In this document: positions 1 through 32,000 of the stretch, piece by piece
Position numbering within the stretch: position 1 is the first letter of the stretch
How the letters are laid out: each line of letters starts with the position of its first letter
NCBI GenBank assembly: GCA_001761425.1
Contig: CP012986.1
Span: 120,001-152,000 of the forward strand
Source of the DNA: Candidatus Saccharimonadota bacterium
GTDB taxonomy: Archaea; Nanohalarchaeota; Nanosalinia; Nanosalinales; Nanosalinaceae
Reading direction: 5' to 3'
DNA: 32,000 bases
Notes under the pieces: model-generated
What the model saw: the letters and a program-made list of their open reading frames with translations, nothing else
Database searches by the model: none
Told to the model about the DNA's origin: nothing
Translations under genes and position numbers: made by a program

Positions 1-55
1 GGCCGATCACGGATGCAGATTCAAGGCAGTTAAAGAGCCTCTTACTGTAATTAAT

Positions 56-358
56 ATGGAAATTGGGTCTTTCTCCTCAAAATCTGAGACCTCTACCCCT
101 GGAAAGGACAAACTTACCGAAGAGTTCAGAGACGAACTAGAATCTGATAACAGGATTGCCTCGCAATATTACCTAAGTAGGGGAAAGGAACACCTGAAGT
201 TCAAGAACTTTGATAAATCCGAGGAAATGTTGAGAAAGGCCTTGAAACACGACAAGGCGAACCATCAGGCCTATATTTTCCTGCTCTCAGGTAAGATTGA
301 GAGAACAACAGGCCTGAATATGGTAGATCCCCTGGTAAAGATCAAGCACATGTTCTAG
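56..358 (+). CDS. hypothetical protein with one TPR-like helical repeat
   Basis: 100-aa ORF from the track. The segment ASQYYLSRGKEHLKFKNFDKSEEMLRKALKHDKANHQAYIFL has TPR-like hydrophobic spacing. No other motif seen. 4-nt tail-to-tail overlap with the next gene. Confidence 0.35.
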   Translation: MEIGSFSSKSETSTPGKDKLTEEFRDELESDNRIASQYYLSRGKEHLKFKNFDKSEEMLRKALKHDKANHQAYIFLLSGKIERTTGLNMVDPLVKIKHMF

Positions 359-1185
359 GTTACCTCAAGCCATGGTACAGTATACTGCTTTGGATTATCG
401 CTTTCTTCCTGGTGTCCCCAGTCGTTGTGTTCGCCCAAGGCCTCTCCATGGTCTGCAGTCACTACTACTTTGCCGTCCAGTTCTTCAACGAGGCGGGCTA
501 CTTGTTCCAAAGCCATCCTGAGGTCTTGTTCGTAGTGTTTGCGGACTTTTTCTTCTCCTATGTCCTGTACTAGTGCTCCCCAGTGAGGATTTTCGAGGCC
601 TAATGCGTCTTTGATTTTCCACCGTGTTCTGTAAGGTAGTTTCCAGAAGAATTTGCTCCAGTAAGGCCTTGTCATCTCGATCATCTTTCTCTTCGTACTG
701 GATTTCTCTGTTTCCTGGTCCTCTACTATCTGTTCCTGAAGGTTCCAGACTTTTTCTTCCTGTGGACAGCTAATGTAAGGCCTGTGTGGCTGGATATAAT
801 GTATTATTGTTTTTCTACCGTCCGATTCTTCTATTACTTTATCTGTCAGGTCTTCTGGTAGTACAGTGTTTTGTTCTTTGTTCCAGTCTGTTGCCCAGAC
901 GTCTTCGATCTCTCTGAAGGCCTTTGCCGGGTCCCAGTCCTCATGTGCTTTTCCGAGGCTGTTGATGTACGGATTTGCTGCGAAGTATCTGTAATTGTAT
1001 CTTGAGGTGAATGTTTTCGGCAGCCATTCCGGCGTCGAGGTTCCACGAGTTTTCACAGGCCTTAGATCGCCTTCGAGAAAGTCCTGATAGTTATCTCTGA
1101 AGTAATCGTACCGACATGCGTCTAAAACGATGAGGTAGTCCCAGTCGGATTCATGAATAGGCTGAATCTCAAGTTCCTCACTCAT
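355..1185 (-). CDS. alkaline-phosphatase-superfamily (sulfatase/NPP/PglZ-like metalloenzyme core) protein, paralog 1
   Basis: 276-aa ORF with an ATG start. Motifs: N-terminal metal-ligand strand DYLIVLDACRYD, candidate nucleophile region RGTSTPEWL, C-terminal VVVTADHGEALGEHNDWGH (ADHG...H pattern of the AP fold). Collinear end to end with the adjacent 283-aa paralog. Confidence 0.75.
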   Translation of the reverse strand: MSEELEIQPIHESDWDYLIVLDACRYDYFRDNYQDFLEGDLRPVKTRGTSTPEWLPKTFTSRYNYRYFAANPYINSLGKAHEDWDPAKAFREIEDVWATDWNKEQNTVLPEDLTDKVIEESDGRKTIIHYIQPHRPYISCPQEEKVWNLQEQIVEDQETEKSSTKRKMIEMTRPYWSKFFWKLPYRTRWKIKDALGLENPHWGALVQDIGEEKVRKHYEQDLRMALEQVARLVEELDGKVVVTADHGEALGEHNDWGHQEESDNPKQYTVPWLEVT

Positions 1186-1188
1186 TTT

Positions 1189-2040
1189 CTAGGCCTCCTT
1201 CTCTCTTACTTCCAGCCATGGAACGTTCAGTAGTTCGTCTTCATTTCCACCGATATAGTGGCCCCAGCCGCCCTCGCCGAGAAGTTCGCCGTGGTCCGCA
1301 GTCACTACTACTTTGCCATCAAGGCCTTCTATTAGTCTCTTTACTTCTTCTAATGCGAGTCTAAGGTCTTTCCTGTAGTATTCCTTGACTTTTTCCTCTC
1401 CTTTTTCTCTCGCTAGCTTCTCATAGTCGTTTCCAAGGCCCAATGCTCCTTTAATTTTTGCCTGGAATGTATAAGGTATGGACGAGAACACTGGGTCCCA
1501 GACAGGTCTTGTCGCATCCAGTGCTTTTCTCAAAACAGTTTCTTCTTCGTCTTCAAGCTTGTTTTTCGGCGCCCACTCAAAATTTTTCTCATTCATTGAG
1601 ATGAAAGGTCTGTGTGGCTGGATATAATGTATTACTGTTTTTGAGTATTCGAGGTTTTCCAGTGCTGTATCTGTCAGGTCTTCAGGCCTTACAGTGTTTA
1701 ATTCGTCGTCCCAGTCTTTTATCCAGGAGTCAACGACGTTCTGGAACTGTTCAGGCGCTTTCCAGCTCCAGTCTTCTCCGCTGACCAAGTCTCCAAGTGT
1801 GAGGCCTTCTCCGTTGATATATGGGTTCGCAGAGATGTAGTTGTAGCTGTATCTCCCTGTGAATGTATTTTTCAGCCACTCTGGTGTCGCAGATCCTCTT
1901 GACCTAACCTTCTTTAACTCGCCTTCTAGAAAGTCTTCGTACTCTTGTTCAAAAATGTCGTATCTGCATGCGTCCAGAACGATCAGGTAGTCCCAGTCTG
2001 CTTCGTTTACCGGTTGCATCTCGAGGCCTTCACTTGTCAT
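1189..2040 (-). CDS. alkaline-phosphatase-superfamily (sulfatase/NPP/PglZ-like metalloenzyme core) protein, paralog 2
   Basis: 283-aa ORF. Same motif set as paralog 1: DYLIVLDACRYD, RGSATPEWL, IHYIQPHRPF, VVVTADHGELLGEGGWGH. Only 3 nt separate it from paralog 1, and it overlaps the upstream glycosyltransferase gene by 11 nt. Confidence 0.75.
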   Translation of the reverse strand: MTSEGLEMQPVNEADWDYLIVLDACRYDIFEQEYEDFLEGELKKVRSRGSATPEWLKNTFTGRYSYNYISANPYINGEGLTLGDLVSGEDWSWKAPEQFQNVVDSWIKDWDDELNTVRPEDLTDTALENLEYSKTVIHYIQPHRPFISMNEKNFEWAPKNKLEDEEETVLRKALDATRPVWDPVFSSIPYTFQAKIKGALGLGNDYEKLAREKGEEKVKEYYRKDLRLALEEVKRLIEGLDGKVVVTADHGELLGEGGWGHYIGGNEDELLNVPWLEVREKEA

Positions 2041-2863
2041 CTCTTTTCTCCTCGTATTCTTCTACTAGCTGTTCGAAGCTTTTATCCTGTACTACTTCCA
2101 CGTTCTCGTATTCTTTTTCCAGCCATTCCGCAAAGTTTTTTTGATGGCCTCCAGCATGAGTTGAAGGCCTTACAACTACTTTTCCTGCTAGATTAGCTGC
2201 CTCATAGGAAGTCATTCCCCCGCGAGTTACTACTGTTTCCGTTCTCCCCATTAACTCAAGGAACTCTTCGTGTGATACGTCTTTCCAGTACTTTTCCTGT
2301 AACTCAGGATCATTGCTGGAGGGAATTATCAGTAACTCATTATCCTTCTCCTCACTTTTGTGTTCGGAGAAATCTCTGTACTGTATAATTTCTTTATTCT
2401 CCACTTCTTCCGTATCGTATTTGTCCAGGAGTTCGTCCTGGGAGACCCATACGCGCGTACTTGATAACTTGGAAAGTATCTTCGGTGTCAAACTCGGCTG
2501 TTTCGTCCGGTTTTCCGCCTCTACAGCGGTGACTTCTATGCCTTTCAATCCTGCCAGAAGTCCGATTGGGAAAGAAGTGTTCGCGCCGTACACTACTACT
2601 TTTTCAGGCCTTTCTTTTCTCAGTATCTTCCAGCTCCTGTAGAAGTTTTTCAGTGTCCTTAGAGGCCTATACATTTTTCCGCCTGTAGGCCTGAAACTCG
2701 GTACCTTATAGACTTTTTCTGCGAAGCTGTAGTCGTACTCGTCCTCGTGGTCTGTTACGACTATGTATTCCTGTTCTTCTACTTCCTCTTCCAAGCGAGC
2801 TTTGACTGCCGGTGTGGCTGTTGCGTGGCCCGAGTGTCTGGATCCTAGTATTATTTTGGTCAT
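2030..2863 (-). CDS. fused Alg14-like / Alg13-like (GT28 C-terminal domain) glycosyltransferase
   Basis: 277-aa ORF. The N-half (KVVVYGANTSFPIGLLAGLKGIEVTAVEAENRTKQPSLTPKIL) resembles the Alg14/EpsE-type half. The C-half (VVTRGGMTSYEAANLAGKVVVRPSTHAGGHQKNFAEWL) resembles the MurG/Alg13 Glyco_tran_28_C nucleotide-sugar-binding half. 4-nt ATGA-type overlap with the upstream gene. Confidence 0.75.
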   Translation of the reverse strand: MTKIILGSRHSGHATATPAVKARLEEEVEEQEYIVVTDHEDEYDYSFAEKVYKVPSFRPTGGKMYRPLRTLKNFYRSWKILRKERPEKVVVYGANTSFPIGLLAGLKGIEVTAVEAENRTKQPSLTPKILSKLSSTRVWVSQDELLDKYDTEEVENKEIIQYRDFSEHKSEEKDNELLIIPSSNDPELQEKYWKDVSHEEFLELMGRTETVVTRGGMTSYEAANLAGKVVVRPSTHAGGHQKNFAEWLEKEYENVEVVQDKSFEQLVEEYEEKRDDK

Positions 2864-3603
2864 GGCTTCAACTTCTTGATGTAGTTTTTCGCCAGGTTTA
2901 TGGCTGAAGATCCTGCTGCCTGTTCGATGTGGTAGATGTAGGCATCCGCTACTTTTTCATCGTTCCATTCCAGTACATGGTCTTTTTTCTCCATCTCGTG
3001 GATCTTGAGGTCAGAGACTGCGAGTGCGAGTGCGTACTGTTCGTGGTGGTTGACCTTTCCTTTCTGGAAATCCAGATCCTGTGAAACGTATTTTGACCAG
3101 TCATCCTGTATTTTTTTGTGGGCTTTCTGCTTGAAGACTAGGAAGCCGGCGTTTGGCATCCAGTCCAGGTAAGGCCTGTCTCTTTCCTCGAACAGTTTTT
3201 TCCAACCTTTTTGATCGTTGAAGCGGTGAGCTGGCCTCGCTTTGAACTCGAAGTCTCCTTCCAAGACTTCCCATATATTATTACCTACAATGGTATCGCA
3301 GTCGAGGAACACCACGTTCTCCGAGTCTATGTTACATAGATTGATTTTTTCGCCGTAATGACTTTCAGGTAGAGATCTTGATACGTTGAAGGCCTCTGTC
3401 TGGTTTTCCTTCTTAATCAGTTCTGCTCCTGTTTCTCTCAAGGCCTCTTCGTCTTCTTCGTTGTATGGTGGTGTGTAGAATATCTTGATTTTTTTTGCGT
3501 CTACATAATGTTTGAGTGTCGCGATCGATCGAAGGCATTGCTGGATCATTCCTTTTCTACTGCTGAGTGTATATGCGAACACTGTGTTTTCCTCTAGCGA
3601 CAC
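2860..3603 (-). CDS. GT-A fold nucleotide-diphospho-sugar transferase (GT8-like, DxD motif)
   Basis: 247-aa ORF with a GTG start at 3603. VVFLDCDTIV is a DxD motif in the context typical of GT8-like transferases. First large gene of the four-gene minus-strand operon. Confidence 0.7.
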   Translation of the reverse strand: MSLEENTVFAYTLSSRKGMIQQCLRSIATLKHYVDAKKIKIFYTPPYNEEDEEALRETGAELIKKENQTEAFNVSRSLPESHYGEKINLCNIDSENVVFLDCDTIVGNNIWEVLEGDFEFKARPAHRFNDQKGWKKLFEERDRPYLDWMPNAGFLVFKQKAHKKIQDDWSKYVSQDLDFQKGKVNHHEQYALALAVSDLKIHEMEKKDHVLEWNDEKVADAYIYHIEQAAGSSAINLAKNYIKKLKP

Positions 3604-3673
3604 GTTTCCACCTAAAGAAAAAATTGTCTCTCTGTTTTTATTAGTCTGTCAGAATATTTCCAGAAACGGAAGT

Positions 3674-3856
3674 TTAGAGGACTCCTACCAGTGCGGAAAG
3701 AAAGTTGAATATCATTCGGAAGATAGCGAACACGAAGCGTGCGACAGCTATTATAGAACCTGCTACGAAGTTCGCAGCCATTTTCTTCCGGTTACTAGGT
3801 GCATACTCGGATTCTCCGCTGTGCCCGTGTCCACTCACTACCTGGAATGTATGCAT
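3674..3856 (-). CDS. possible small membrane protein
   Basis: 60-aa ATG ORF with a hydrophobic C-terminal helix (FVAGSIIAVARFVFAIFRMIFNFLSALVGVL). Lies between the origin and the glycosylation operon. No homology recognised. Confidence 0.3.
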   Translation of the reverse strand: MHTFQVVSGHGHSGESEYAPSNRKKMAANFVAGSIIAVARFVFAIFRMIFNFLSALVGVL

Positions 3857-3918
3857 CAGGATTTATACAACTGATTATGAGAGGCCTTGTTGTCACTGAG
3901 GCAGGGATGTTAACTGAT

Positions 3919-3942
3919 TCTCCACATGAAATCAGGGGGTCC
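3919..3942 (+). repeat. origin recognition box (ORB) copy a
   Basis: Sequence tctccacatgaaatcagggggtcc. Matches the other two copies and the archaeal ORB pattern (TTCCA..GAAA....GGGGG). Confidence 0.7.
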
Positions 3943-4187
3943 AGAAGGATTTTCATGGAGACCTGAGTTCGGAAACGAGAGCTAAGAAGTCCGTGGAAAA
4001 AACAGGAATTTCTGAAAAGGTTATAGCAAAACATATTCACTAGACTTCTGCAATCTCTGAACTCGACGAAATATAACGGTGTAATATACAAAGGCCTTCT
4101 AGCGGAATCAGCCTCTTACCAAGAAGGATTAGGGCGTTAGTGGAATTTGGCTAGTTCCGTGATCTTGATTTACGAGGTAGATATCCG

Positions 4188-4211
4188 CCCACCCCCTCGT
4201 TTCAAGTGGAA
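4188..4211 (-). repeat. origin recognition box (ORB) copy b, inverted
   Basis: The reverse complement reads ttccacttgaaacgagggggtggg. Its TTCCAC end faces the AT-rich element. Confidence 0.7.
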
Positions 4212-4228
4212 GAAAGTTTCTGGGCCGG

Positions 4229-4300
4229 AAATTCTGATATAACACTGCTATCTGATATAACAACGTTATTATTATATTACACTGTTATACTGTGTAACTT
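4229..4300. other. AT-rich candidate duplex unwinding element
   Basis: Visibly AT-rich run (ttctgatataacactgctatctgatataacaacgttattattatattacactgttatactgtgtaac). Contains the direct repeat ctgatataaca at 4234-4244 and 4252-4262. Flanked by inverted ORBs b and c. Confidence 0.55.
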
Positions 4301-4314
4301 TCGGCAATCTCATT

Positions 4315-4343
4315 TTCCACACGAAATCAGGGGGTGGGGGTCC
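4315..4343 (+). repeat. origin recognition box (ORB) copy c
   Basis: Sequence ttccacacgaaatcagggggtgggggtcc. Its TTCCAC end faces the AT-rich element, mirroring copy b. Confidence 0.75.
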
Positions 4344-4447
4344 CTCTTACCTTGGCTTCGGATGGAAGGGATTATAAACCTTAGTTTCAAGTAGAAAACA
4401 CACGGGGAAAAAATGAGTTTTATTTCTGATTTCACGGAGGGGGTTCG

Positions 4448-5656
4448 ATGAGTCAGAGTAATCTTAAGTCGATGTTTTCAAATTACATCGACAAGGATTC
4501 GGTCTTCAAGAATAAGGATGCTCTGACCACTAGCTATAAACCAGACAATATTCTGCATAGAGAGGAGCAGATCAATGACTTAGCGTCTATCCTGGCGCCT
4601 TCGCTCAAGGGAAATGATCCTAGCAACGTCTTTCTCTACGGCTCTGTTGGGACAGGTAAGACACTGGTCGTCCAGCATGTTACGGACGAGTTGAGAAGTG
4701 TTGCCAGCGAACAGGAAATAGATCTAAACATACTATACATTAACTGCAAGATGAAGAAGGTCGCGGACACTGAATACCGTCTTCTTGCCAAACTTGCTAG
4801 ACAGCTTGGAGAGGAAGTACCTTCTACAGGCCTTCCTACGGACGAGATCTACAACCGTTTCTTCGAGGCTCTAAAAGATCAGGGAGGCGTGGTTGTCATC
4901 GCACTGGACGAGATCGACGCGCTTGTGAAGAAGGTCGGCGACGAGTTCCTTTACAACCTTACAAGGATCAACGATGATCTTGAGGATACGAAGGTCTCGA
5001 TCCTGGGTATCTCAAACGACCTGAATTTCACAGATTATATGGATTCAAGGGTAAAGTCGTCTCTTTCGGAGGAGGAGATTATCTTCGCGCCTTATAATGC
5101 GATAGAGCTGAGAGAGATTTTACGTGACAGGACAGAGAAGGCCTTTGTCGAGGGATCTCTCCAGGACGGTGTTATCTCGAAATGTTCGGCTCTGGCTGCC
5201 CAGGAGCACGGTGACGCAAGAAGAGCTCTTGATCTTTTGCGTGTCGCAGGAGAGCTTGCGGAAAGATCCGAGGTTGAGAAGATCGAGAAAGAACATGTTA
5301 ACAAGGCCCAGAGCAAGATTGAGCGTGACAGAGTGGTTGAAACTGTTAGAAGTCAGCCGAAGCACTCGAAGCTGGTCCTGTATACTATACTTGATATGAC
5401 AGAGGATAAAGATGAGATCGCGACAGGTGACGTGTACAGCGAGTACAAGGAACTCTGTCAGGGCGTTGATGTCTCTGAACTGACCCAGAGACGTGTTTCA
5501 GGCCTTATATCTGAGCTGGATATGCTTGGAGTTGTAAACGCTAAAGTGATCAGCAAGGGTCGTTACGGTCGTACAAGGCAGATCAGTGTTGATCTGTCGG
5601 AGAACATCAGATCCAGGCTTGAAGAGATGGTAGAGGAGAAATTCTACATCGAGTAA
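4448..5656 (+). CDS. orc1: Orc1/Cdc6 replication initiator (AAA+ plus C-terminal winged helix)
   Basis: 402 aa. Walker A GSVGTGKT, Walker B VVVIALDEID, sensor region GDARRALDLLR, and the typical N-terminal YKPDNILHREEQI motif. Confidence 0.95.
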   Translation: MSQSNLKSMFSNYIDKDSVFKNKDALTTSYKPDNILHREEQINDLASILAPSLKGNDPSNVFLYGSVGTGKTLVVQHVTDELRSVASEQEIDLNILYINCKMKKVADTEYRLLAKLARQLGEEVPSTGLPTDEIYNRFFEALKDQGGVVVIALDEIDALVKKVGDEFLYNLTRINDDLEDTKVSILGISNDLNFTDYMDSRVKSSLSEEEIIFAPYNAIELREILRDRTEKAFVEGSLQDGVISKCSALAAQEHGDARRALDLLRVAGELAERSEVEKIEKEHVNKAQSKIERDRVVETVRSQPKHSKLVLYTILDMTEDKDEIATGDVYSEYKELCQGVDVSELTQRRVSGLISELDMLGVVNAKVISKGRYGRTRQISVDLSENIRSRLEEMVEEKFYIE

Positions 5657-5688
5657 GGCCTTTCAGACAGAGAGGGGGATTTTTGGTA

Positions 5689-7455
5689 ATGAAAGAGAAC
5701 GCTGTAAAAGAACTGACTAAACAGGGATGTATGGTTGGAAGAGAAGCTGCAGATATGCTGACGGAAGAAGACGTAGAGTTGATCCGCCAGCTTGATACCA
5801 CACCCATGTATATCTCTAAGAATATGATTTCCAACCTCCGCAGCAAGATGTCCCAGCAGGCCTCTAAAAAGAAACAGGTTGTCAAGGCGACCGCTGATGG
5901 AGGTACTGAGGTAGAGCAGGAGACTTCTTCTGTGCCTGGCGATTCTTCTCCTGAGGCTGTTTCCGAGACTGATATAAGTGAAGGACAAACTACTGAACAG
6001 GAGGGGAAGATGGACGACAGTGTAATAGTTTCAGAAACTTCTGAGGAGGAAAAGGCCTCTGAAGACGAAGTAGAGGAAAATTCTGAAGATTCCTCAGGAG
6101 ATAAGGCCTTGGATGAAGAAGTCGATGAGAGTAAACTGAATAATGACATTGATGATGGTCAGGATGAGATCTACGAGAGGAAGAGTTCCCATTTCTCGAA
6201 GGATAAAACTGTAGAACTGCGTGATTCCGGCGATAGGGATGGGATGCGTACGAAGGTCGAGGTCATGGACGAGTACGATATCAATAAAGAGGAGAAAGAT
6301 GTCCCGGAGTTTCTTTCTTACTATAACGACCGATATGACAGGATGAGAAAGCTGTTAACGCGCAGGACCCAGCTCCAGTCTGCTACAACTATCAAACGGC
6401 TGAAGAACAGGGATGAAGGCGAGCAGGCGACTACTGTAGGCCTTGTAAATGACAAGTACTCCACTTCCTCAGGTAAATACATAGTTGAGATAGAAGATAA
6501 GACCGGAACGTTCAAGGCCCTGGTCGATGAGAGAGAAGGTGATATGATTGTTCCGGATGAGATGATAGGTTTACAGGGGAATATGGGCGGTGATATTATC
6601 TATGCTAATAATGTTGTGAGGCCTGATCTTCCTATTCCTCAGGGACAGACTGCTACGACTGAGGAAGACGTTAAGGCTGCTTATATCTCTGATCTGCATA
6701 TTGGTTCGGAGGATACTCTTCATGAGCGTATGAACCGTTTTGCTGACTGGCTCAGCACTGATGCAGCTTCTGATATCGGTTACCTCGTAATTGCCGGTGA
6801 CCTGGTGGAAGGTGTCGGCATCTATCCTGGCCAGGAGGAGGAACTGGAGGTTGCAGATATCTATGACCAGTACGAGATGTTTGAGGACTGGGTTGACAGG
6901 ATTCCAGAAGATATACAGATTATAGCTGGTCCTGGAAACCACGATATCACACGCCTGTCTGAGCCCCAGCCCAGGATACAGGAAGATGTCTTCCCACGTA
7001 TAAAGGACTACGATAACTTCCACAGGGTTCAGAATCCGCAGACTGTCCGCTTACATGGAATCGAGAGCAAAGGCCTCAAGCACCTGATGTATCACGGCTA
7101 CAGCTTCGATGACCATGTGGACAGGATCCAGGAGCTGCGTGAAAACGCGTACGATGAGCCTGAAAGAGTTATGATCGACCTTCTGAAGAGGAGGCATCTA
7201 GCTCCTACATATGGTTCCAATCAACTGTCCCCAGAAGCTGTAGACCACATGGTGGTTGAGGAAGAACCTGATGTGATGGTCTCCGGACATTTCCACAGCC
7301 ACGCAGTAAGCAGTTACAAAGGAGTAAACGTGGTATGTTCAAGTACTTTCCAGGCCCAGACGGATTTCCAGAAACGCGTAGGCCACGAACCAGATCCTGG
7401 AAAAGTGACACTCATGAATTTCAAGAACAGGAAGACAGAGGTAAAACAGTTCTAA
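5689..7455 (+). CDS. polD1: DNA polymerase II (PolD) small subunit DP1
   Basis: C-terminal calcineurin-like phosphoesterase motifs (YISDLHIGS, VIAGDLVEG, GPGNHD, VSGHFH) and an OB-fold region. ATG at 5689 is preferred over the track's TTG at 5683 because a gaggggga Shine-Dalgarno-like box lies about 9 nt upstream. An acidic low-complexity insertion follows the N-terminal helical domain. Confidence 0.9.
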   Translation: MKENAVKELTKQGCMVGREAADMLTEEDVELIRQLDTTPMYISKNMISNLRSKMSQQASKKKQVVKATADGGTEVEQETSSVPGDSSPEAVSETDISEGQTTEQEGKMDDSVIVSETSEEEKASEDEVEENSEDSSGDKALDEEVDESKLNNDIDDGQDEIYERKSSHFSKDKTVELRDSGDRDGMRTKVEVMDEYDINKEEKDVPEFLSYYNDRYDRMRKLLTRRTQLQSATTIKRLKNRDEGEQATTVGLVNDKYSTSSGKYIVEIEDKTGTFKALVDEREGDMIVPDEMIGLQGNMGGDIIYANNVVRPDLPIPQGQTATTEEDVKAAYISDLHIGSEDTLHERMNRFADWLSTDAASDIGYLVIAGDLVEGVGIYPGQEEELEVADIYDQYEMFEDWVDRIPEDIQIIAGPGNHDITRLSEPQPRIQEDVFPRIKDYDNFHRVQNPQTVRLHGIESKGLKHLMYHGYSFDDHVDRIQELRENAYDEPERVMIDLLKRRHLAPTYGSNQLSPEAVDHMVVEEEPDVMVSGHFHSHAVSSYKGVNVVCSSTFQAQTDFQKRVGHEPDPGKVTLMNFKNRKTEVKQF

Positions 7456-21905: not shown

Positions 21906-21929
21906 CAACCCCCATGTAAGAGAAAACAG

Positions 21930-24432: not shown

Positions 24433-24566
24433 ACATAGTCATCTCCACCCACATTTACTTTCGACCGAATTAATTCACAGAAAGGAAGTTGCCCTAGAGG
24501 GTAGTAGACCTGTGATCAAATTGTTAGGGCAATGATTATGCCCTAATTTTTTGATGAAAACCGTCT

Positions 24567-24579
24567 AGCCCCGTCCGGG
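24567..24579. repeat. att site copy within the tRNA-Thr 3' end
   Basis: agccccgtccggg corresponds to the discriminator base, the 3' acceptor strand and the 3' T-stem strand of the tRNA on the opposite strand. Confidence 0.75.
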
Positions 24580-24720
24580 ATTTGAACCCGGGATCTGTCC
24601 CTTGCTCTGTGCGGTTATATCCGTCTTCTGCAAGCCATTCTTTGAATGGCTTATTGCGTCCGGCTCGAGCGTAACCACGCCTACGAGGGGACCGCTCTAG
24701 CCAGGCTGAGCCAACGAGGC
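24567..24720 (-). tRNA. tRNA-Thr (anticodon CGU) with a 79-nt intron (24603-24681)
   Basis: Hand fold: acceptor GCCTCGT/ACGGGGC (one G-U pair), D arm GCTC-AGCCTGGCTA-GAGC, anticodon stem GTCCC/GGGAC, loop CTCGTA[intron]A, variable AGATC, T arm CCGGG-TTCAAAT-CCCGG, discriminator T. The anticodon assumes the canonical 37/38 intron position. Confidence 0.85.
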
Positions 24721-24754
24721 TATACAGAAATTTCTTCGCTGAAGTTTTTTGTAG

Positions 24755-25435
24755 TCACCGCTGGTAGTTGAAGGCCTGCTGGAAGTTGATTCTGGAGGCC
24801 TCTCCCTCTATGAGGTAGTTTGAGGCCTGTGATACTTTGTCTACTACTTTTTGTGCGTCCTCTTTGCTGTAACTGGCGACTTCTTCGGCGAATTTCTGGT
24901 ACATGACCGGTGCTTCTTGCTGGAATTTGTAGAAGTCTTTATCTGACATACTGTCTATGCCGCCGTCTTTAAACTCGAAGGCTGAGCTGTCGTAGACGTC
25001 GAAGGCCTTTGCTTCTCCGTTGTAGAATCCTATGTTGTCTCCGGGATCTTCGTAGACTATACCTCTTTCTGTGAATTCGTCGAGGAGGTTTTCTACTGTC
25101 TCCTCTACTACAAAGTCTGTTCCGTATTTTTCTACGGCTTCTCCGACTTTTTCATCGGCCTCGTCCTGGTGTATCACCATTGTCTCTTCCCAGAGGCCTA
25201 TATCGGTGAAATCTCTTTCGTTGACTGTTCCGGGTGCTATGAAATCTGTTTCCCCGAGTTCTTCTCTGTTTTCTTCCGGGAAGTCTTTCCTGGCCACTGG
25301 CTTGACCATTCCGCGGAGGCCTCTGTACACTGTCTTGTTTGTTCCGGTGTTGATGGAGTCTCCGTGCTTTATCGCCGCTTTTTCGGCCTTTTTTCTCTGC
25401 TCTGTATCTTCCTGGATTACTCTGCCAATCGACAT
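24755..25435 (-). CDS. hypothetical acidic protein
   Basis: ORF from the track. ATG at 25435 (MSIGRVIQED...) is preferred over the TTG at 25486 because a TATA-like gttattaac lies about 25-30 nt upstream. No recognised motifs. Confidence 0.6.
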   Translation of the reverse strand: MSIGRVIQEDTEQRKKAEKAAIKHGDSINTGTNKTVYRGLRGMVKPVARKDFPEENREELGETDFIAPGTVNERDFTDIGLWEETMVIHQDEADEKVGEAVEKYGTDFVVEETVENLLDEFTERGIVYEDPGDNIGFYNGEAKAFDVYDSSAFEFKDGGIDSMSDKDFYKFQQEAPVMYQKFAEEVASYSKEDAQKVVDKVSQASNYLIEGEASRINFQQAFNYQR

Positions 25436-25533
25436 AATTGTTGTTATGGCCCGGTAGTTAATAACTTTTGGGTGTGGTTTCGGCAAGGTAATTTAAACCG
25501 GTCCTGAGAATCTTTGGTTATTGGTGATCAATT

Positions 25534-25731
25534 TTGGAAGATACTATCGGTGAAGTTGCGGGAGAAGTCTGGGATTTCCTTGAAGAGAACGGAGAGACGT
25601 CTGTTTCAGGAGTGACGAAAGGAGTCGAGGCTCCGGGCACTAAAGTTTACATGGCGATGGGCTGGCTTGCCAGAGAAGATAAACTGGAGTTTCTCGATAA
25701 GAAAAGAGGCAACGCGGTCAGGCTGAATTAA
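25534..25731 (+). CDS. small winged-helix protein (DUF2582-like)
   Basis: 65 aa, TTG start, with an in-frame TGA just upstream. IGEVAGEVWDFLEENGETSVSGVTKGVEAPGTKVYMAMGWLAREDKLEF matches my recollection of the DUF2582 wHTH pattern. Confidence 0.65.
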   Translation: MEDTIGEVAGEVWDFLEENGETSVSGVTKGVEAPGTKVYMAMGWLAREDKLEFLDKKRGNAVRLN

Positions 25732-25771
25732 AGGCCTCAAGGTTTTATTCTAAGGCCTCCAATAACTTTAC

Positions 25772-26713
25772 ATGACTCTGAGAGAAGGAGCTGAAACTAT
25801 AGTTAAACAGTGTTTAAACGTTCAGAGGGACGAACATGTCCTGGTTCTGAACGATTCTAATGATCAGGAGTTCATTGATGCGTTGATGGATGTGCTTGAA
25901 GAGGAGGCAGGCCTTGCTCTCTTGAAGGAGTACGAGGAGCCGGAGAATCATGGTGATGAACCGCCGGAGGAAGTTGCTCAGGCGATGAAGGATGCTGATG
26001 TGGTTATCGCTCCTACGATGAAGTCTCTTTCCCATACTGATGCTAGGAGGGAGGCCGGTGCCTGTGGATCTCGGATTGCGACGCTTCCGACGATCGACAG
26101 GGAGATATGGAACGGTGCATTACAGGCTGATTATGAGGAAGTCAGGAAAATTTCTGAAAAAGTCTACTCAATGCTTGAAGATACTGAAGTTGTAAGGATT
26201 GAGACTCCGTCAGGCACGGAGCTGGAGCTTAATATCGAGATTGATACTTTTCATACTGATACAGGCCTTATCCATGAGGAAGGGGCTTTCGGCAACCTTC
26301 CTGCGGGAGAATCTGACGGTGCTTCTGTCAATGCGAACGGAACTCTCATGGTTGATCACTTCGTCGTCTCCGGCGAAGGAGCAAGACTTGAGATACAGGA
26401 CAACGAGGTTGTCGCCTACCAGGGTGAGGAGGGAACCGATCTTGAGGAAGGCCTCAGTGAGATTCAGTGTGTGAAGAATGTTGCGGAGTTTGGTTTCGGG
26501 ACTAATCCTGAAGCCTCTCTGATAGGCAATATTCTGGAGGATGAGAAAGTTCTGGGAACTGTGCATATCGCTCTGGGCGATAACTCCTCGTATATGGACG
26601 GTTCACGTGCGGTTAACTGTAAGGTTCACTGGGATGCTGTATGCGAAGAGCCGACGGTCTGGTTCGATGATGAGAAGGTCCTGGATTCGGGGGAACCTGT
26701 TTTCCTTGAGTGA
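25772..26713 (+). CDS. aminopeptidase, M29 (AmpS/aminopeptidase T)-like
   Basis: 313 aa. N-terminal GAETIVKQCLNVQRDEHVLVL and C-terminal GTVHIALGDN resemble COG2309-type aminopeptidases. The assignment is tentative. Confidence 0.6.
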   Translation: MTLREGAETIVKQCLNVQRDEHVLVLNDSNDQEFIDALMDVLEEEAGLALLKEYEEPENHGDEPPEEVAQAMKDADVVIAPTMKSLSHTDARREAGACGSRIATLPTIDREIWNGALQADYEEVRKISEKVYSMLEDTEVVRIETPSGTELELNIEIDTFHTDTGLIHEEGAFGNLPAGESDGASVNANGTLMVDHFVVSGEGARLEIQDNEVVAYQGEEGTDLEEGLSEIQCVKNVAEFGFGTNPEASLIGNILEDEKVLGTVHIALGDNSSYMDGSRAVNCKVHWDAVCEEPTVWFDDEKVLDSGEPVFLE

Positions 26714-26755
26714 GGTTACATTTTAAACCGAGGTCTACGCATAACTTATTATTCC

Positions 26756-28609
26756 ATGGGACTGTTGAACTCTGACGTCGAGGACTCGGTATCTGATGCG
26801 GTCTCCGAGACCAAAAATAATGCTGAGGAGCTTGAAGGCGAGATCAGAGATGAGGAGTCCAAGATCCAGGAGCTTCTGAACCGTGTCAGCAAGATCGAGT
26901 ACCGGCAGAACCAGTTAGAGGCCTCCGACGATGAAGATCTTCGTCAGAGGCAACAGGAGCTAAGTGAGGAAATTAATGAACTCCGCAAGGATTTTTCTGA
27001 TATCAAGATAGACTATAATTCTCTTCCGAAAGATTACGAGTTCCAGGACATGGTAGATGAGTTTGAAGAGAAGAGAGAAAAGGTTGAACAGCTTCTTCCT
27101 GCGATCGAGGCAGCCTTCGACGATATTGAAGAGATCGAGGACCAGTCTATTGTCACAGAAAGAGACGTAGAGGATATACGTGACAGACTGGAACAGTTCC
27201 AGGACAGAGAGGAACAGATCCAGAAACTGAAGGCTCACATCGAAGATATGGACAAGAGCCTTTCAGACATGGGTAGAGAGCTGAAAGACGTCGAGATAGA
27301 GGAAAAAGTCGATAAATCAAGGTTCCAGCAGAAACTTGAAAGCGTCAGAGGAGACCAGCTGGTCGAACTCGCAAGGCTGAGAGACCGGGTGAAAAACCTG
27401 GCTGTCGAAGAGAAAGTCGACAGGTCAGAGCTAGACCGCGAACTGGAACAGATGAGAGATGAGCTCGGTATAAACATGATAGATAAGGTTTACAGGCTGA
27501 GAGAACAGCTTGCCTCCAAATCGGAGGTCAGAAGCCTCTGGGACACGATAGAGCTACTGGAGGAGAGGCACGATGATGCTCTCCAGGAGATCGATGTCGT
27601 GGAAGAGCAGCTCTCTGATGTCATTGAATATGTAGCAGACCTCGATGAAGGCCTTGAAGGCCTGAAAGATACTGTAGAGGAAGTAGACGAAAGAAAAGTT
27701 GACAGGGAGGAGTTTGAACAGCTTGAGTTGGATGACAAGATAGAGATCTCTGAACTGGAGAAAAAGCTGGAGGAGCTGAGAGATGAGTTCGGCATTGATA
27801 TAGAGGAGTCTGAAAAGACTTTACGCGAACAGCTGGCTTCCAAATCTGAAGTTGTTTCGCTCTGGGACAGCCTTGAAGAGGTCCGGGAGAAACAGGATAA
27901 AAAGCTGAGTCGTGAAGAATTCGAGGAAAAGATCTCTGACGTTGAAAGTGTTCTTCCTGCGGTAGAGGAGGCCTATAATGATATTGCGGAGCTTGAGGAG
28001 AAGTTTGATAAGAAGGACAAGCGTATAGAGCAGAAGGTTGATCGGGAAGAGTTTGAGAGGATGGAGATTGAGGACAAGGTTGAGGCCTCTCAGCTGGAGA
28101 GGGAGATCCAGGATGTGATGGAGGAGATCGGTGTAAGTATACTTGAATCCGAGCATAGGCTTCGTGAACAGCTGGCCTCAAAGTCCGAGGTCAGGAATCT
28201 CTGGGATTCGATGGATCTTCTTGAGGACAGGTTTGATGATCATTCCCAGGATATTGACGGCCTGGAAAAAGAGGTAACAGAGAACTTTGAGCACCTGGCC
28301 GAGGTGAAAGAGGACGTAGACAGGGTTGAAGAGAGGCAGGAAGGCCTTGTAACGGAGAATGAATTTGAGGAGAAGACTGCGGATATTGATGCTCTTGAGA
28401 AAGAGGTTACCGAGCTTCTGGCAGATTTCTCCGATCTCAGTGACAGGATAGAGGATTCAGAGCAGACTGCTGAAGGCCTTGAGTCGGATATTGAAGGCGT
28501 CGAGGAACGTGTTCCTGATGAGCCTGTGAGCCGTGAGGAATTTGAGGATCTGCAGGAGAAGGTCCAGAGGCTTTCAGAAGCTTTGGTGAAGGTAGCGAAC
28601 AAGGATTAG
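26756..28609 (+). CDS. highly acidic coiled-coil protein with three long internal repeats
   Basis: 617 aa, rich in E, D, L, K and R throughout. The block LREQLASKSEV(R/V)(S/N)LWD recurs three times, with DNA copies starting near 27499, 27826 and 28164. Confidence 0.8.
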   Translation: MGLLNSDVEDSVSDAVSETKNNAEELEGEIRDEESKIQELLNRVSKIEYRQNQLEASDDEDLRQRQQELSEEINELRKDFSDIKIDYNSLPKDYEFQDMVDEFEEKREKVEQLLPAIEAAFDDIEEIEDQSIVTERDVEDIRDRLEQFQDREEQIQKLKAHIEDMDKSLSDMGRELKDVEIEEKVDKSRFQQKLESVRGDQLVELARLRDRVKNLAVEEKVDRSELDRELEQMRDELGINMIDKVYRLREQLASKSEVRSLWDTIELLEERHDDALQEIDVVEEQLSDVIEYVADLDEGLEGLKDTVEEVDERKVDREEFEQLELDDKIEISELEKKLEELRDEFGIDIEESEKTLREQLASKSEVVSLWDSLEEVREKQDKKLSREEFEEKISDVESVLPAVEEAYNDIAELEEKFDKKDKRIEQKVDREEFERMEIEDKVEASQLEREIQDVMEEIGVSILESEHRLREQLASKSEVRNLWDSMDLLEDRFDDHSQDIDGLEKEVTENFEHLAEVKEDVDRVEERQEGLVTENEFEEKTADIDALEKEVTELLADFSDLSDRIEDSEQTAEGLESDIEGVEERVPDEPVSREEFEDLQEKVQRLSEALVKVANKD

Positions 28610-28615
28610 GGAAGA

Positions 28616-28621
28616 TTTTTT
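28616..28621 (+). terminator. oligo-T tract after the coiled-coil gene
   Basis: Run of six T located 7 nt after the TAG stop. Confidence 0.3.
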
Positions 28622-28803
28622 AATTTCTGGTATCTAATGAGTTTTTGAAATGAGTCCGGCAGCTGTAACTCAGGCTAGAGAAGTTTCTTTTACTGGTACA
28701 GCTGTTGTTATGTGGTTCAGGAATAATTTTTCCATGTCGAAGTCTGGGGCTAATTTTACCTTTAAGTAAGGCTCCGGAACCGCTTTAGAGGTCTTTTTTC
28801 TGT

Positions 28804-29475
28804 ATGGTTCTGGAAAAAATTGATGACGGCGCCCAACGGCTACTGCTCGTTCTCTGCCTCCCGCTAATCGACGGAGTTTTCGCCACACTGCTCGTAACAG
28901 GCGCGGTATCAACTTTTTCAGATATCATAACGGTAGGCCTCACTGTTTTCACGGGTGCAGGAGCTCTTGCAGTCCTGTATTCTGAGTCGGAGAATAGTTC
29001 AGAGGCCTTTTCCCTGGTTAACCAGGTCGCACCTGTACTTTTAGCCGGTGCTTTAATTGTGGCTCTGATCGCTCCTGTCTTCGATCAGATATTCAATATC
29101 TCAAGGTTGAAGTACGCGGCAGGCCTGGCATTATTGACGATACCTGCTAAACTTGTTGATATAGAGCTGGCTGAAAAGTTTTCGGTCCCTGCTATAGTCG
29201 TTACAGGAATGTTTCTATCCTTGAGGTCGGGTGCCACGCTTTCACTGAGCCTGGAATATGTCTTGCCGGCTTTGCTAACTTCTACAGCGGCGATAGGAGG
29301 CCTTTATCTGGCTTCGTATCTTTCGCGGGATAATATTTCTTTAAGGTACATCAGGGGTGGTGGAGCGGTGGTTCTGACTGTTATCTCGGCTTCGCTGTTC
29401 GGATACGATGTTCCTTCGAACCTGGGTCTTGCTCTGTTCATGGTTTCGCTGGCTCTTTCTTATAATAGGGGTTGA
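28804..29475 (+). CDS. integral membrane protein (about 6 predicted helices)
   Basis: 223 aa, made of successive hydrophobic segments (LLLVLCLPLIDGVFATLLVTGAV, ITVGLTVFTGAGALAVLY, VAPVLLAGALIVALIAPVF and others). Confidence 0.7.
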   Translation: MVLEKIDDGAQRLLLVLCLPLIDGVFATLLVTGAVSTFSDIITVGLTVFTGAGALAVLYSESENSSEAFSLVNQVAPVLLAGALIVALIAPVFDQIFNISRLKYAAGLALLTIPAKLVDIELAEKFSVPAIVVTGMFLSLRSGATLSLSLEYVLPALLTSTAAIGGLYLASYLSRDNISLRYIRGGGAVVLTVISASLFGYDVPSNLGLALFMVSLALSYNRG

Positions 29476-29489
29476 GAAACTTTTCCTGG

Positions 29490-29870
29490 TTATATCTGCT
29501 GTATCTCTACCTGGAATCCGCTGTCTCTTTTGTTCATGATGTGAGCGACTATTCTTTCCCGTATAGGCCTTATTACCATGATGAATCCGATTCCGTCGGT
29601 TATAAAGCCTGGGCTGAGGAGGAATAGGCCTGAGAGTACGAGGATTGCTCCTTCGAGGAAGTTTCGGCTTATTTCGCCTCCTGTTACTGAGGTCTGGAGT
29701 TTCATGAAGACGTGTCTTCCTTCTCTGCGGATCAGTTCGGCTCCGATAAGGCCTGTGAGAAGTATTATTGCAAGTGTTTTCCAGAATCCCAGGGTTCCTG
29801 CTACCTGTATCAGCAGGTAGAGGTCTACAAATGGAAGTACTAGGATTCCTATTATCAGGTATCGGAGCAT
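29490..29870 (-). CDS. fxsA: FxsA family membrane protein
   Basis: 126 aa. LPFVDLYLLIQVAGTLGFWKTLAIILLTGLIGAELIRREG and LLLSPGFITDGIGFIMVIRPIR match the FxsA (UPF0716) pattern. Confidence 0.85.
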   Translation of the reverse strand: MLRYLIIGILVLPFVDLYLLIQVAGTLGFWKTLAIILLTGLIGAELIRREGRHVFMKLQTSVTGGEISRNFLEGAILVLSGLFLLSPGFITDGIGFIMVIRPIRERIVAHIMNKRDSGFQVEIQQI

Positions 29871-29920
29871 GTCTAGGCTTTTGTGTTGAAGATTTAAAGA
29901 TTGAATCAGCTTCTTTTTAC

Positions 29921-30958
29921 ATGAAGAGTTTGCTAAAGGAACTCGTTGAGACTCCTGGTGTATCCGGCCAGGAGCATCAGATAAGGGATAAAATCCGTGA
30001 AGAAGTAGAGGATCACGCAGATTCTGTCGAAGAGGACAGGATGGGCAATCTTGTCGCCAGAAAAGGAGATGGTGATGAAACCTTGATGATCGCAGCTCAT
30101 ATGGATCAGATAGGCCTTGCTGTTAAAGATGTGGATGAGAACGGCTTTATCAGGTTTTCAAAGATTGGAGGCATTACGCTTCAGTCCTTGATGAATCAGA
30201 GGGTTACTATCCATACTGAGACTGGCAGAGTTACCGGTGTTTTGGGTATGAAGCCCCCACATCTTATGGATAAGGAAAACAGGGATAAGTTGCCTGAGAA
30301 AGAACAGCTTTTCATCGATATCGGTGCTGAAGACGATGAAGAGGTCGATGAGCTTGGTGTAAACGTCGGTGATACTATAACGTTCGAGAGAGATGCAAAG
30401 GATCTTCAAAACGATTATATTACAGGCCTTGCGCTTGATAACCGTGTTGGAGTAGCTGTAGCGATCAAAGTACTGGAGGAATATGAAGCGGATACAGAGC
30501 TTGCTGTTGTCTTTTCCACACAGGAAGAAGTCGGTTTGAAGGGCGCAAAGACTGCTGCTTTCAATGTCAGTCCGGATGCTGCACTAGCTGTTGATGTCTC
30601 GATCGCGGGGGATGTTCCTGGTATCGAGCCTACTGAGACAAAGCTCGGTACGGGAGAAGGTGTTGACCTCCAGATGGTCCAGAGCTCTGGCAGAGGCCTT
30701 ATCACTCCTGAGACGGTCAGGAACTGGCTTGTCGAGACTGCGGAGGAAGGCGATCATGAGTACATCCGTACAGTTATGGAGGGCGGGGCCACCGATGCAG
30801 CAAAGATAGAGCTAGTTAAGGAAGGAATCCCTACAGGGTCGATCGGAGTGCCTATGAGACACATGCATTCCTCCACGGAAGTCGTTAAAATGTCAGATGT
30901 CAAGGCCACAGCAGAGTTCGTGACCGACGCCGCTGAATCATTCGGCGAAAAATTCTAG
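29921..30958 (+). CDS. M42 family metallopeptidase (TET/FrvX-type aminopeptidase)
   Basis: Start at ATG 29921 (MKSLLKELVETPGVSGQEHQIRDKI). Motifs AAHMDQIGL, LDNRVG, TQEEVGLKGA. The longer track ORF would overlap fxsA. Confidence 0.9.
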   Translation: MKSLLKELVETPGVSGQEHQIRDKIREEVEDHADSVEEDRMGNLVARKGDGDETLMIAAHMDQIGLAVKDVDENGFIRFSKIGGITLQSLMNQRVTIHTETGRVTGVLGMKPPHLMDKENRDKLPEKEQLFIDIGAEDDEEVDELGVNVGDTITFERDAKDLQNDYITGLALDNRVGVAVAIKVLEEYEADTELAVVFSTQEEVGLKGAKTAAFNVSPDAALAVDVSIAGDVPGIEPTETKLGTGEGVDLQMVQSSGRGLITPETVRNWLVETAEEGDHEYIRTVMEGGATDAAKIELVKEGIPTGSIGVPMRHMHSSTEVVKMSDVKATAEFVTDAAESFGEKF

Positions 30959-30982
30959 AGGCCTCACATTTTCCTTTATTTT

Positions 30983-32000
30983 TTATTCGTATCTGAGTGC
31001 TTCTGCTGGTTCAAGGCCTGCTGCTCTTCTCGCCGGTAAAACTCCTGAGATAATCCCTAGTACGAGGGAGAAGACCAGACTGCCCAGTAGAAGGTCGAGG
31101 CCGAGGTAGGGCCTTATTGCGAGGGCTGTGAACTGTGAGGCACCGATTGATGCGGTCCAGGAGAGCGTTACTCCCAGTATGAGGCCTGTTATTCCTCCGA
31201 GGAGGCCTACTGCTCCTGATTCCAGGAGGAAGAGGGCCATTATCTGCCTGTTTTTTGCGCCGATGGCTTTCATGACTCCGATCTCTCTTGTTCTCTGGCT
31301 TACTGAGGTGTACATTGAGTTCATGATGCCTACTGCTCCTACGAAAAGGGATATGGATGCGATTCCTATGACTACTCCTCTTACGACGTCTAGTATGCCC
31401 TGGAATGAGGCGACGAGATCCTCCTGGGTGGATACTGTGAAAGTTTCCTCGCCTTCTTCTGTGCCTCTGCGGTTTCTTATCTGTTTTTCTACGTCTTCTT
31501 TTACTTCTCCTGGTTCGAATCCTTCGTCTGCTTCTCCGAAGAGCCAGTCATAGTTTTCAGGCCTATCCATGAGGTCTCTGGACGAGCTGAGGGTCATTAT
31601 GACTGCTGTATCTATTGAAGGGTCTCCTGTAGGTTCGAGGACTCCGACCGCTCTGTGTTTGACATCATCTACATTGATGTTTGATCTTACACCCAGTTCT
31701 TCATCGAAGACCTGGTCTGCGACTCTGCTTCCCAGGACGATGTTGTACCTGTCGTTTTCACGTATCATCCTTCCTTCTCCAATCTCCATCGCCCAGCTCT
31801 CCATGACAAGGTCTATGTTCTCGTTCGCCGGGATACCTATCACCGGTAAAAATTCGGTCTGCTCTCCGACACTGACACCGGTGTTCATGAAAAGTGCTCC
31901 TTCGGCTCTTGAAATCCCGCGGGTTGAACGCATAGCCTCTAAATCCTGATCTGTCAACGGTTTTGCTTCTTCCCCTCCAGAGGTCAGGCTTCCGCCCGGA
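30983..32000 (-). CDS. ABC transporter permease, FtsX/MacB-type (N-terminus beyond window end)
   Basis: C-terminal FtsX domain (REIGVMKAIGAKNRQIMALFLLESGAVGLLGG ... PARRAAGLEPAEALRYE). The reading frame stays open upstream of the track's TTG start, out to position 32000. Confidence 0.85.
   Translation of the reverse strand, partial: PGGSLTSGGEEAKPLTDQDLEAMRSTRGISRAEGALFMNTGVSVGEQTEFLPVIGIPANENIDLVMESWAMEIGEGRMIRENDRYNIVLGSRVADQVFDEELGVRSNINVDDVKHRAVGVLEPTGDPSIDTAVIMTLSSSRDLMDRPENYDWLFGEADEGFEPGEVKEDVEKQIRNRRGTEEGEETFTVSTQEDLVASFQGILDVVRGVVIGIASISLFVGAVGIMNSMYTSVSQRTREIGVMKAIGAKNRQIMALFLLESGAVGLLGGITGLILGVTLSWTASIGASQFTALAIRPYLGLDLLLGSLVFSLVLGIISGVLPARRAAGLEPAEALRYE

Follow-up and report, generated by a model that had tools for sequence, protein, structure and literature searches.

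We analysed a stretch of 32,000 bp (hereafter the window) that represents the oriC-cdc6-PolD region of the ~1.1-Mb genome of a member of the Nanohaloarchaeota (DPANN), a salt-loving symbiotic archaeon, and found the palindromic hexamer AGGCCT in extreme excess. The homologues of the DNA polymerase D large subunit (DP2) encoded in the window all belong to Candidatus Nanohaloarchaeota, with named matches including Nanohalobium sp., Nanosalina, Nanohalococcus and Nanohalovita. The gene order cdc6-DP1-DP2 had pointed to Thermococcales, an origin that the names and identities of the homologues ruled out. Our data show that the DNA itself is under strong positive pressure towards exactly this hexamer. 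Some factor in which related lineages differ underlies the pressure, and the distance to neighbouring sites modulates it. With about even confidence, we propose that AGGCCT is a highly iterated palindrome (HIP), i.e. a genome-wide DNA-level signal in certain lineages of the Nanohaloarchaeota that is analogous to the HIP1 element of cyanobacteria and to DNA uptake sequences.

Exact counting revealed 124 copies of AGGCCT in the window (3.9 per kb), which makes it the most frequent of all hexamers. The window has a guanine plus cytosine (GC) content of 45.6%, and Markov models of order 0, 1, 2 and 3 predict 6.3, 8.3, 23 and 52 copies, respectively. An earlier reading of the letters alone (the sequence-only reading) had estimated about 124 sites by eye, with 18 of them in the first 3 kb and about 114 outside an integrated element at 17,663-24,566. 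The exact counts are the same, with 10 sites inside the element. Its estimate of the GC content (low 40s) was too low, and three of the positions it had given for individual sites, namely 11847, 16922 and 25752, were off by one (actual positions 11846, 16923 and 25753).

Within coding sequences, 107 copies were observed compared to 14.6±3.5 (maximum 24) in 300 shuffles of synonymous codons within the window genes, a procedure that preserves every protein and the overall codon usage. AGGCCT accounts for 124 of the 180 GGCC tetramers in the window and is far commoner than other GC-palindromes: the next-ranked palindromes reach 17 copies, and TGGCCA and CGGCCG occur three times and once, respectively. 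The one-mismatch variants of the hexamer are present in 2-20 copies each. The sequence-only reading had named an expectation built from pentamers as the number to compare with. This maximal-order Markov expectation is 111 and thus formally close to the 124 observed copies, but since the pentamers AGGCC (137 copies) and GGCCT (146 copies) are almost entirely derived from the hexamer itself, the comparison is circular, invalid here and no argument against the excess. Extensions of AGGCCT to 7 or 8 bases are uninformative (ratio of observed to expected counts, O/E, 0.96-1.12), and the context AAGGCCTT holds 26 of the 124 sites. The flanks are weakly biased, with T being disfavoured at position -1 and favoured at positions -3 and -4, and non-coding DNA behaves alike. 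Beyond these weak preferences at ±1 to ±4 the flanks show no conservation, and 87% of the sites lie within genes. The repeated unit is the hexamer AGGCCT itself and no longer word.

The sites occur in all three reading frames (23 as AGG CCT, 37 as nAG GCC Tnn and 48 as nnA GGC CTn), in genes of both strands and in intergenic DNA, as noted before: 12 sites lie wholly in non-coding DNA and three share bases with stop codons. We defined a synonymous opportunity as Arg-Pro, [Lys/Glu/Gln]-Ala-[F/L/S/Y/C/W], or x-Gly-Leu where x has a codon that ends in A. Of these opportunities in the window, 79, 72 and 89% in the three frames read AGGCCT, while ~10% would be expected from the codon usage of the genome. 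Opportunity use amounts to 72-91% compared to 0-20% in relatives without the excess. In 16 enriched loci, the density in long open reading frames (ORFs) is 3.02 per kb compared to 3.17 per kb elsewhere. Many sites are owed to amino-acid replacements, for instance from DP to RP or from DDL to EGL, and amino-acid contexts that permit the hexamer number 3.2-4.0 per kb in enriched genomes versus 1.4-3.7 per kb in non-enriched ones. The replacement sites indicate that the pressure extends to the protein sequence. The AGGCCT excess hence acts on DNA and not on codons. The claim that no single codon pair or lower-order bias lies behind it withstands both the codon shuffles and the near-saturation in every frame. 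The further claim that an active process on the DNA is needed is borne out by the near-saturated opportunities, the equal density in non-coding DNA, the sites that change amino acids and the sister lineages of similar GC content without the excess. As candidate processes, the sequence-only reading had listed a protected or methylated site, a binding site for an architectural, segregation or uptake protein, and a repair or recombination bias, all of which are weighed below.

Loci of relatives were collected via DP2 homologues and a metagenome scan with a DP2 alignment, which yielded ~45 nanohaloarchaeal contigs; ~15-32 kb were read per genome. A contig search with a single DP2 protein had returned three loci, with no close relative among them. 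In ~25 related contigs AGGCCT is 15-25x over-represented, which corresponds to 3-5 sites per kb. These comprise the clade of the window (L004-L009, L140, L152), a second clade (L135-L137, L142, L157) and L011, L133, L156 and L162. An intermediate excess of 6-10x was detected in L144, L149, L145 and L150, and no excess (O/E 0-3) in L001, L010, L132, L134, L138, L139, L141, L143, L147, L148, L151, L154, L160 and L164. Relatives without the excess that are equally halophilic and of the same GC content have an O/E of about 1-2. On a DP2 neighbour-joining tree of 38 loci, enriched and non-enriched states interleave, and according to multi-gene identities the enriched L011 and L133 group with the non-enriched L010. 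Judged from these relationships, at least four or five gains or losses of the excess would be needed. Both states occur among strains that are in culture and completely sequenced:

Ca. Nanohalovita haloferacivicina BNXNv (CP107255): 39 sites observed, 3.2 expected, 12x
Ca. Nanosalina sp. VS9-1 (CP180230): 58 sites observed, 3.6 expected, 16x
Ca. Nanohalococcus occultus SVXNc (CP104395): 3 sites observed, 3.4 expected, 0.9x

A second contig of the metagenome-assembled genome (MAG) that contains L009 carries unrelated genes (DNA ligase, TBP, chromosomal MCM) and has 46 sites compared to 2.8 expected (16.5x), which indicates that the excess is not limited to the origin region. It was thus seen in two regions of a single assembly as well as in many assemblies that are independent of each other.

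Among enriched genomes, 42-81% of the AGGCCT sites are shared at orthologous positions compared to 14-30% of control hexamers in the same frame (2.7-4x). Sharing with non-enriched sisters amounts to 7-9% and is at or below the control level. Between the window and a 98%-identical relative, a handful of sites was lost on either side, mostly by transitions. L004, L006 and L008 share the intergenic site at 12548, which has decayed in L007 and L009. L011 has no orthologue of this site and carries another AGGCCT 30 bp away in a 10-bp insertion.

The spacing of the sites is more even than chance, and long gaps are rare. The coefficient of variation (CV) of the gaps is 0.59-0.93 in 10 of 10 enriched loci compared to ~1.0 for the controls, for which the 30 commonest pairs of control hexamers were taken from these loci. 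In most loci, whether enriched or not, the positions of the opportunities themselves are not under-dispersed (CV mostly 0.9-1.3; 0.66-0.77 in three short non-enriched loci). In the host DNA of the window, the longest gap without a site measures 736 bp. Opportunity use increases with the distance to another site, from 35% below 15 bp to 52% at 15-30 bp, 64% at 30-60 bp and 77-79% at 60-240 bp (Mann-Whitney p = 0.006). Very close sites hence appear to be redundant or disfavoured.

Mechanistically, a lineage-specific and probably dimeric protein may recognise AGGCCT, and DNA that bears the hexamer would be favoured in a DNA transaction, for example when DNA of the same species is taken up or recombined, or in strand-directed repair. 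Sites would accumulate through drive together with weak selection, limited by coding constraints and by the redundancy of sites less than ~60 bp apart, and lineages without the recognition factor would lose the excess or never gain it. Near-saturation of the opportunities, together with relatives that cope without the motif, favours drive. The spacing data speak for a component that is functional or depends on distance. Given the analogy to uptake sequences and recent work on HIP1, a drive of the recombination/uptake type, possibly methylation-dependent, appears to be the most likely mechanism. Methylated HIP1 was reported to raise natural transformation up to 100-fold, and HIP1 abundance tracks proteins of type IV secretion (T4SS) and of competence (bioRxiv 10.1101/2024.09.10.611283, 10.64898/2026.06.24.733823). 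For nanohaloarchaea, import of environmental DNA has been proposed, and giant proteins with VirB4/TraG-like ATPase domains have been described (PMC10266531).

It may be speculated, although we consider it rather unlikely in this full form, that with AGGCCT a tag for self DNA has been described in Archaea for the first time, and that it belongs to a horizontally gained and lost recognition system, possibly a methylation-dependent one. Host-dependent DPANN symbionts would have to import DNA or nucleotides, and a hexamer-specific system could mark DNA as conspecific. Marked DNA would be recombined or retained instead of degraded, and the target would spread by biased recombination. Horizontal gain and loss of the system could then leave one lineage saturated with the motif and its neighbour without any trace of enrichment.

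Several observations weigh against the proposed signal. The term genome-wide is an extrapolation from the ~15-32 kb per genome that were read. In the fetched nanohaloarchaeal loci we detected neither a DNA methyltransferase or restriction gene nor a recognition protein or an uptake gene. The ORFs of the in-group loci, of related loci and of AGGCCT-rich viral loci were scanned for 5-methylcytosine (m5C) and amino-methyltransferase motifs, and the sole match lies in the distant DPANN locus L155. Among the unannotated proteins of the window, Pfam and NCBIfam revealed nothing related to DNA modification; a protein of 617 aa is a coiled-coil protein that resembles SMC/Rad50. For BNXNv, a cultured strain with the excess, the published annotation gives type III Mod/Res alone as DNA-modification machinery (PMC10266531), so that a cognate type II methyltransferase may not exist, and the supplementary tables of the same paper contain no annotation for methyltransferase genes of BNXNv. 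As the opportunities are nearly saturated, the sharing of sites between enriched genomes can reflect independent convergence and proves neither ancestry nor selection on individual sites. Finally, interference below 60 bp is far shorter than the kilobase scale expected of uptake or recombination signals.

The strongest alternative is that the excess is a function-less by-product of biased mutation or repair, for example of very-short-patch (VSP)-type repair that is tied to a cytosine methyltransferase and converts near-cognate words. We regard this as unlikely, though it agrees with much of what was observed: the near-saturation whatever the frame, the equal density in coding and non-coding DNA, the tolerated amino-acid changes, a patchiness as expected if a mobile enzyme gene is gained and lost, and foreign genes that ameliorate with residence time. 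A known case is CCWGG in Escherichia coli, the target of the Dcm methyltransferase, which is over-represented owing to Vsr repair that is biased towards the target. There, the excess is well under 2x and accompanied by a depleted T-neighbour, whereas the AGGCCT excess is ~20x and concerns all six positions, and its T-neighbours are not depleted. Vsr-type repair acts at one position and would account for an excess of ~1.5x, not 20x. In a comparison of 281 kb of enriched with 178 kb of non-enriched DNA, the C-to-T neighbours AGGTCT/AGACCT and AGGCTT/AAGCCT occur at 0.84-0.86 of the non-enriched level and above the order-0 expectation, and the total pool of one-mismatch neighbours is unchanged. 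No class of one-mismatch words is thus strongly depleted, and neither the signature of Vsr-type bias (depleted C-to-T neighbours) nor that of m5C deamination (raised C-to-T neighbours) was seen in this comparison. Variants at the outermost positions, GGGCCT/AGGCCC, reach 3.4x the non-enriched level, and the same bias towards outermost-position deviations was described for HIP1 by Elhai, whose HIP model is of this by-product type (PMC4390886). A purely local mutation process does not predict the under-dispersion or the lower use of nearby opportunities, and the fetched loci offered no methyltransferase that such repair could be tied to.

Somewhat less probable still is selection for a site every few hundred bp, which would provide a chromosomal, architectural or segregation protein, or a nuclease that discriminates strands in repair, with a dense array of binding sites. 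The even spacing with few long gaps (at most 736 bp in the host DNA of the window), an interference below ~60 bp that matches the size of a protein footprint, and the intergenic site that was lost in L011 and replaced 30 bp away would all fit such an array, and a role in nucleoid structure was argued for HIP1 by Xu et al. (PMC5861425). Yet selection on each of ~4,000 sites that fixes 70-90% of the opportunities and even changes amino acids would be hard to sustain, related lineages thrive without any excess, and no candidate protein was identified.

AGGCCT is the recognition sequence of StuI, a classical type II enzyme. It is very improbable, in our view, that the hexamer is simply the methylated and thereby protected target of a StuI-type restriction-modification (RM) system. 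The classical type II sequence and the typically patchy distribution of RM genes speak for this idea. Targets of such systems are, however, typically avoided and not accumulated, while AGGCCT is ~20x over-represented; protection alone cannot generate sites or an excess, and no RM gene was found in the fetched loci. For comparison, Ca. Nanohalococcus has just 140 copies of its own methylated motif GDGCHC (PMC10266531). A by-product of codon usage, of the acidic halophile proteome or of lower-order oligonucleotide bias, for which the pentamer-based expectation (111 vs 124) and the commonness of Glu/Lys-Ala and Gly-Leu in acidic proteomes could be quoted, is refuted by the saturated opportunities, the codon shuffles (14.6±3.5 vs 107), pentamers that are themselves made by the hexamer, the same density in non-coding DNA and non-enriched relatives that are equally halophilic, have the same GC content and show an O/E of about 1-2.

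Among known systems, HIP1 (GCGATCGC) and alternate HIPs of cyanobacteria come closest to AGGCCT, followed by DNA uptake sequences. Both words are short, exact and GC-rich palindromes, and the HIP class is 15-300x over-represented; both occur in all frames of coding and in non-coding DNA, are conserved between orthologues beyond background and are spaced non-randomly; both are lineage-specific with exceptional genomes that lack the motif, and both show deviations at the outermost positions (PMC4390886, PMC5861425). In agreement with this class, AGGCCT exceeds the composition and codon nulls more than 10-fold, has no longer unit in either coding or non-coding DNA and is shared between orthologues beyond background. 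It differs from HIP1 in being a 6-mer and not an 8-mer, in its density (3-5 per kb vs ~1 per kb), in its occurrence in archaea, namely DPANN symbionts with ~1-Mb genomes, and in a much patchier distribution within a family. Furthermore, cognate methyltransferases are known for HIP1, whereas none was found for AGGCCT in the fetched loci. Given its motif and its nanohaloarchaeal host, AGGCCT is an analogue of HIP1 and not a member of HIP1 itself.

Uptake signal sequences (USS) of Pasteurellaceae and DNA uptake sequences (DUS) of Neisseriaceae are likewise present at a density of at least ~1 copy per kb, in both orientations and with many copies inside genes, and their accumulation is ascribed to molecular drive and not to selection on each site. 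They are reportedly evenly spaced, an observation attributed to Karlin et al. in 1996. USS and DUS differ in that they are non-palindromic, measure 9-12 nt and are recognised by a known competence machinery, and DUS cluster in terminators; AGGCCT is a 6-bp palindrome without an extended consensus and not an asymmetric word of 9-12 nt. To our knowledge, nanohaloarchaea have no known competence system or sequence-specific receptor. Uptake sequences are known to co-evolve with the proteome (PMC2817400). Chi sites are over-represented short words as well; they mark self DNA and bias recombinational repair, and HIP1 has been proposed to act in a Chi-like manner (bioRxiv 10.1101/2024.09.10.611283). 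Chi sites are, in contrast, asymmetric, skewed with the direction of replication, in few-fold excess and dependent on RecBCD/AddAB, which archaea lack. Repetitive extragenic palindromic (REP) sequences or miniature inverted-repeat transposable elements (MITEs) do not match either, as AGGCCT has no extended conserved sequence and its sites do not lie mainly between genes.

A full-text literature search revealed no publication in which AGGCCT is connected with nanohaloarchaea or any other archaea, and the word is absent from the main nanohaloarchaeal genome papers. The excess thus seems to be previously unreported in archaea: the class of highly iterated palindromes is known, and the motif, its length, its density, the domain of its host and its patchiness set this case apart. 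HIP1-like palindromes have been unexplained for 30 years and concern essentially one bacterial phylum, and AGGCCT appears to be an independent archaeal case. Since AGGCCT is a standard 6-bp StuI site, its modification can be tested by a simple digest, and genomes of ~1 Mb make a comparison of gene contents tractable. Cultured strains with complete genomes are available on both sides (BNXNv and VS9-1 enriched, SVXNc not), and comparing them could reveal which protein is responsible and help to tell drive and selection apart. The density of AGGCCT is also a strong signal for binning and host assignment of nanohaloarchaeal contigs, and a residence clock for imported DNA that is relevant to gene transfer between DPANN archaea and their hosts.

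The features of the window are as follows:

1..32000, no strand: all AGGCCT sites, 124 exact matches, 3.9 per kb
1..17662, no strand: left part of the host chromosome, 81 sites, 96.6% identical to and collinear with relative L004
3604..4447, no strand: origin-like intergenic region upstream of cdc6, ORB-type (origin recognition box) repeats, merely 2 AGGCCT sites
4448-5656: Cdc6/Orc1 gene (Pfam)
5656..5661, no strand: AGGCCT that overlaps the stop codon of cdc6 (gagTAAGGCCT), comparable sites at 11739, 13643, 17629 and 30959
5683-7455: PolD small subunit (DP1) gene (Pfam)
8252..11740, forward strand: PolD large subunit (DP2) gene, 15 sites, 15 of 17 synonymous opportunities used
11846..11891, no strand: two sites (11846, 11886) that lie entirely in the DP2-CBS intergenic region
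3882, 4092, 12548, 16923, 17136, 19608, 25732, 25753: further intergenic AGGCCT sites
17663..24566, no strand: integrated element, 6.9 kb, 10 sites
19748..21847, reverse strand: element-borne MCM helicase gene, host-like AGGCCT density, GC 0.44
24567..32000, no strand: host chromosome, right part, 33 sites

According to Pfam, the left part encodes glycosyl/sulfatase-like proteins, Cdc6, PolD DP1 and DP2 and CBS, Toprim, AsnC and acetyltransferase proteins. It includes oriC, and the CV of the gaps between its sites is 0.67 compared to ~1.0 for control hexamers. In DP2 orthologues of non-enriched lineages, 0-22% of the AGGCCT opportunities are used. The region at 3604-4447 upstream of cdc6 is a probable replication origin, judged from ORB-type repeats (TTCCACAyGAAATCAGGGGGT) at 3914-3940 and 4309-4335, inverted copies at 4188-4211 and 4379-4396, and three 18-nt repeats arranged in tandem at 4233-4287. 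AGGCCT frequently overlaps a stop codon or comes right after one (TAAGGCCT, TAGGCCT, or TAA directly followed by AGGCCT). Among 204 genes from enriched loci, a site begins at position +2 or +3 of the stop codon in 11 cases compared to ~1.4 expected, which is ~8x the local density. This may be owed to unconstrained sequence there or to a function at the ends of genes. Two glycosyl/sulfatase-like genes (355-2040) share 52-66% amino-acid identity with their counterparts in L004, compared to ~97% elsewhere.

The integrated element is absent from the near-identical relative L004 (99%) and is flanked by a 13-bp direct repeat, AGCCCCGTCCGGG, at 17650-17662 and 24567-24579. A tRNA gene (24566-24721, reverse strand) with a 79-nt intron has this repeat as its 3' end; the gene was missed by default ARAGORN and Rfam and found by ARAGORN with the intron option. 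Over positions 17909-24432 the element is a mosaic in its AGGCCT content, and its MCM gene has a host-like GC content of 0.44. Its 10 sites include seven in the MCM gene, where 7 of 7 opportunities are used, one in a gene for a 116-aa protein (1 of 2) and one intergenic site; in the AlbA_2/HATPase_c_4, helix-turn-helix (HTH) and integrase genes, with a GC content of 0.38-0.39, 1 of 9 opportunities is used. The closest homologues of the element MCM are at most 49% identical and located on small contigs, while chromosomal nanohaloarchaeal MCMs are ~30% identical, which suggests that it belongs to a divergent family of the mobile-element type. Among viral contigs, matches to this MCM are at most 35% identical and the tabulated loci show no AGGCCT excess; the element integrase had no match in the viral contigs. 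DP1 was compared with a phage collection with the aim of detecting putative nanohaloarchaeal haloviruses, and no match was found there.

L146, which is otherwise non-enriched, has 9 sites, of which 8 fall within the initial 1.5 kb and 1 within the other 8.8 kb, and positions 1-1500 look like an import from an AGGCCT-rich lineage. Together with the difference between the MCM gene (7/7) and the other element genes (1/9), this mosaic indicates that AGGCCT density records where a segment has resided. The DP2 gene of L011 (10001-13528) encodes a protein that is 82% identical to that of the window, while other L011 proteins are 53-68% identical and closer to L010; judged from these identities, the gene seems to have a history that differs from that of its neighbours. 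Along with the L146 segment, this history may be indirect evidence that DNA with the motif is preferentially taken up or recombined. Many nanohaloarchaeal DP2 genes contain one or two LAGLIDADG inteins (P0003, P0006, P0009, P0023 and others; DP2 proteins of 1,335-1,819 aa). The DP2 of the window has no intein, and in L008 (6251-11221) the intein itself holds 4 AGGCCT sites. Other palindromes are mildly raised in some loci at small counts, namely GATATC (5-6.6x in L001, L006 and L140), TCCGGA (5.6x in L134) and AAGCTT (5.9x in L001).

A scan of viral contigs for three clustered AGGCCT sites returned, among the matches listed, mostly tandem repeats or chance occurrences, and no nanohaloarchaeal contigs were recognised among them. 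Three unrelated 'viral' contigs from IMG/VR show an excess of AGGCCT with dispersed sites: L098, a contig of bacterial type (Rep3, ParA, DnaB-primase, integrase), has 22 in 10.8 kb compared to 2.8 expected, L013 has 13 in 3.6 kb at a GC content of 36%, and L123 has 24 in 13.9 kb at a GC content of 65%. AGGCCT may be iterated in other hosts, too.

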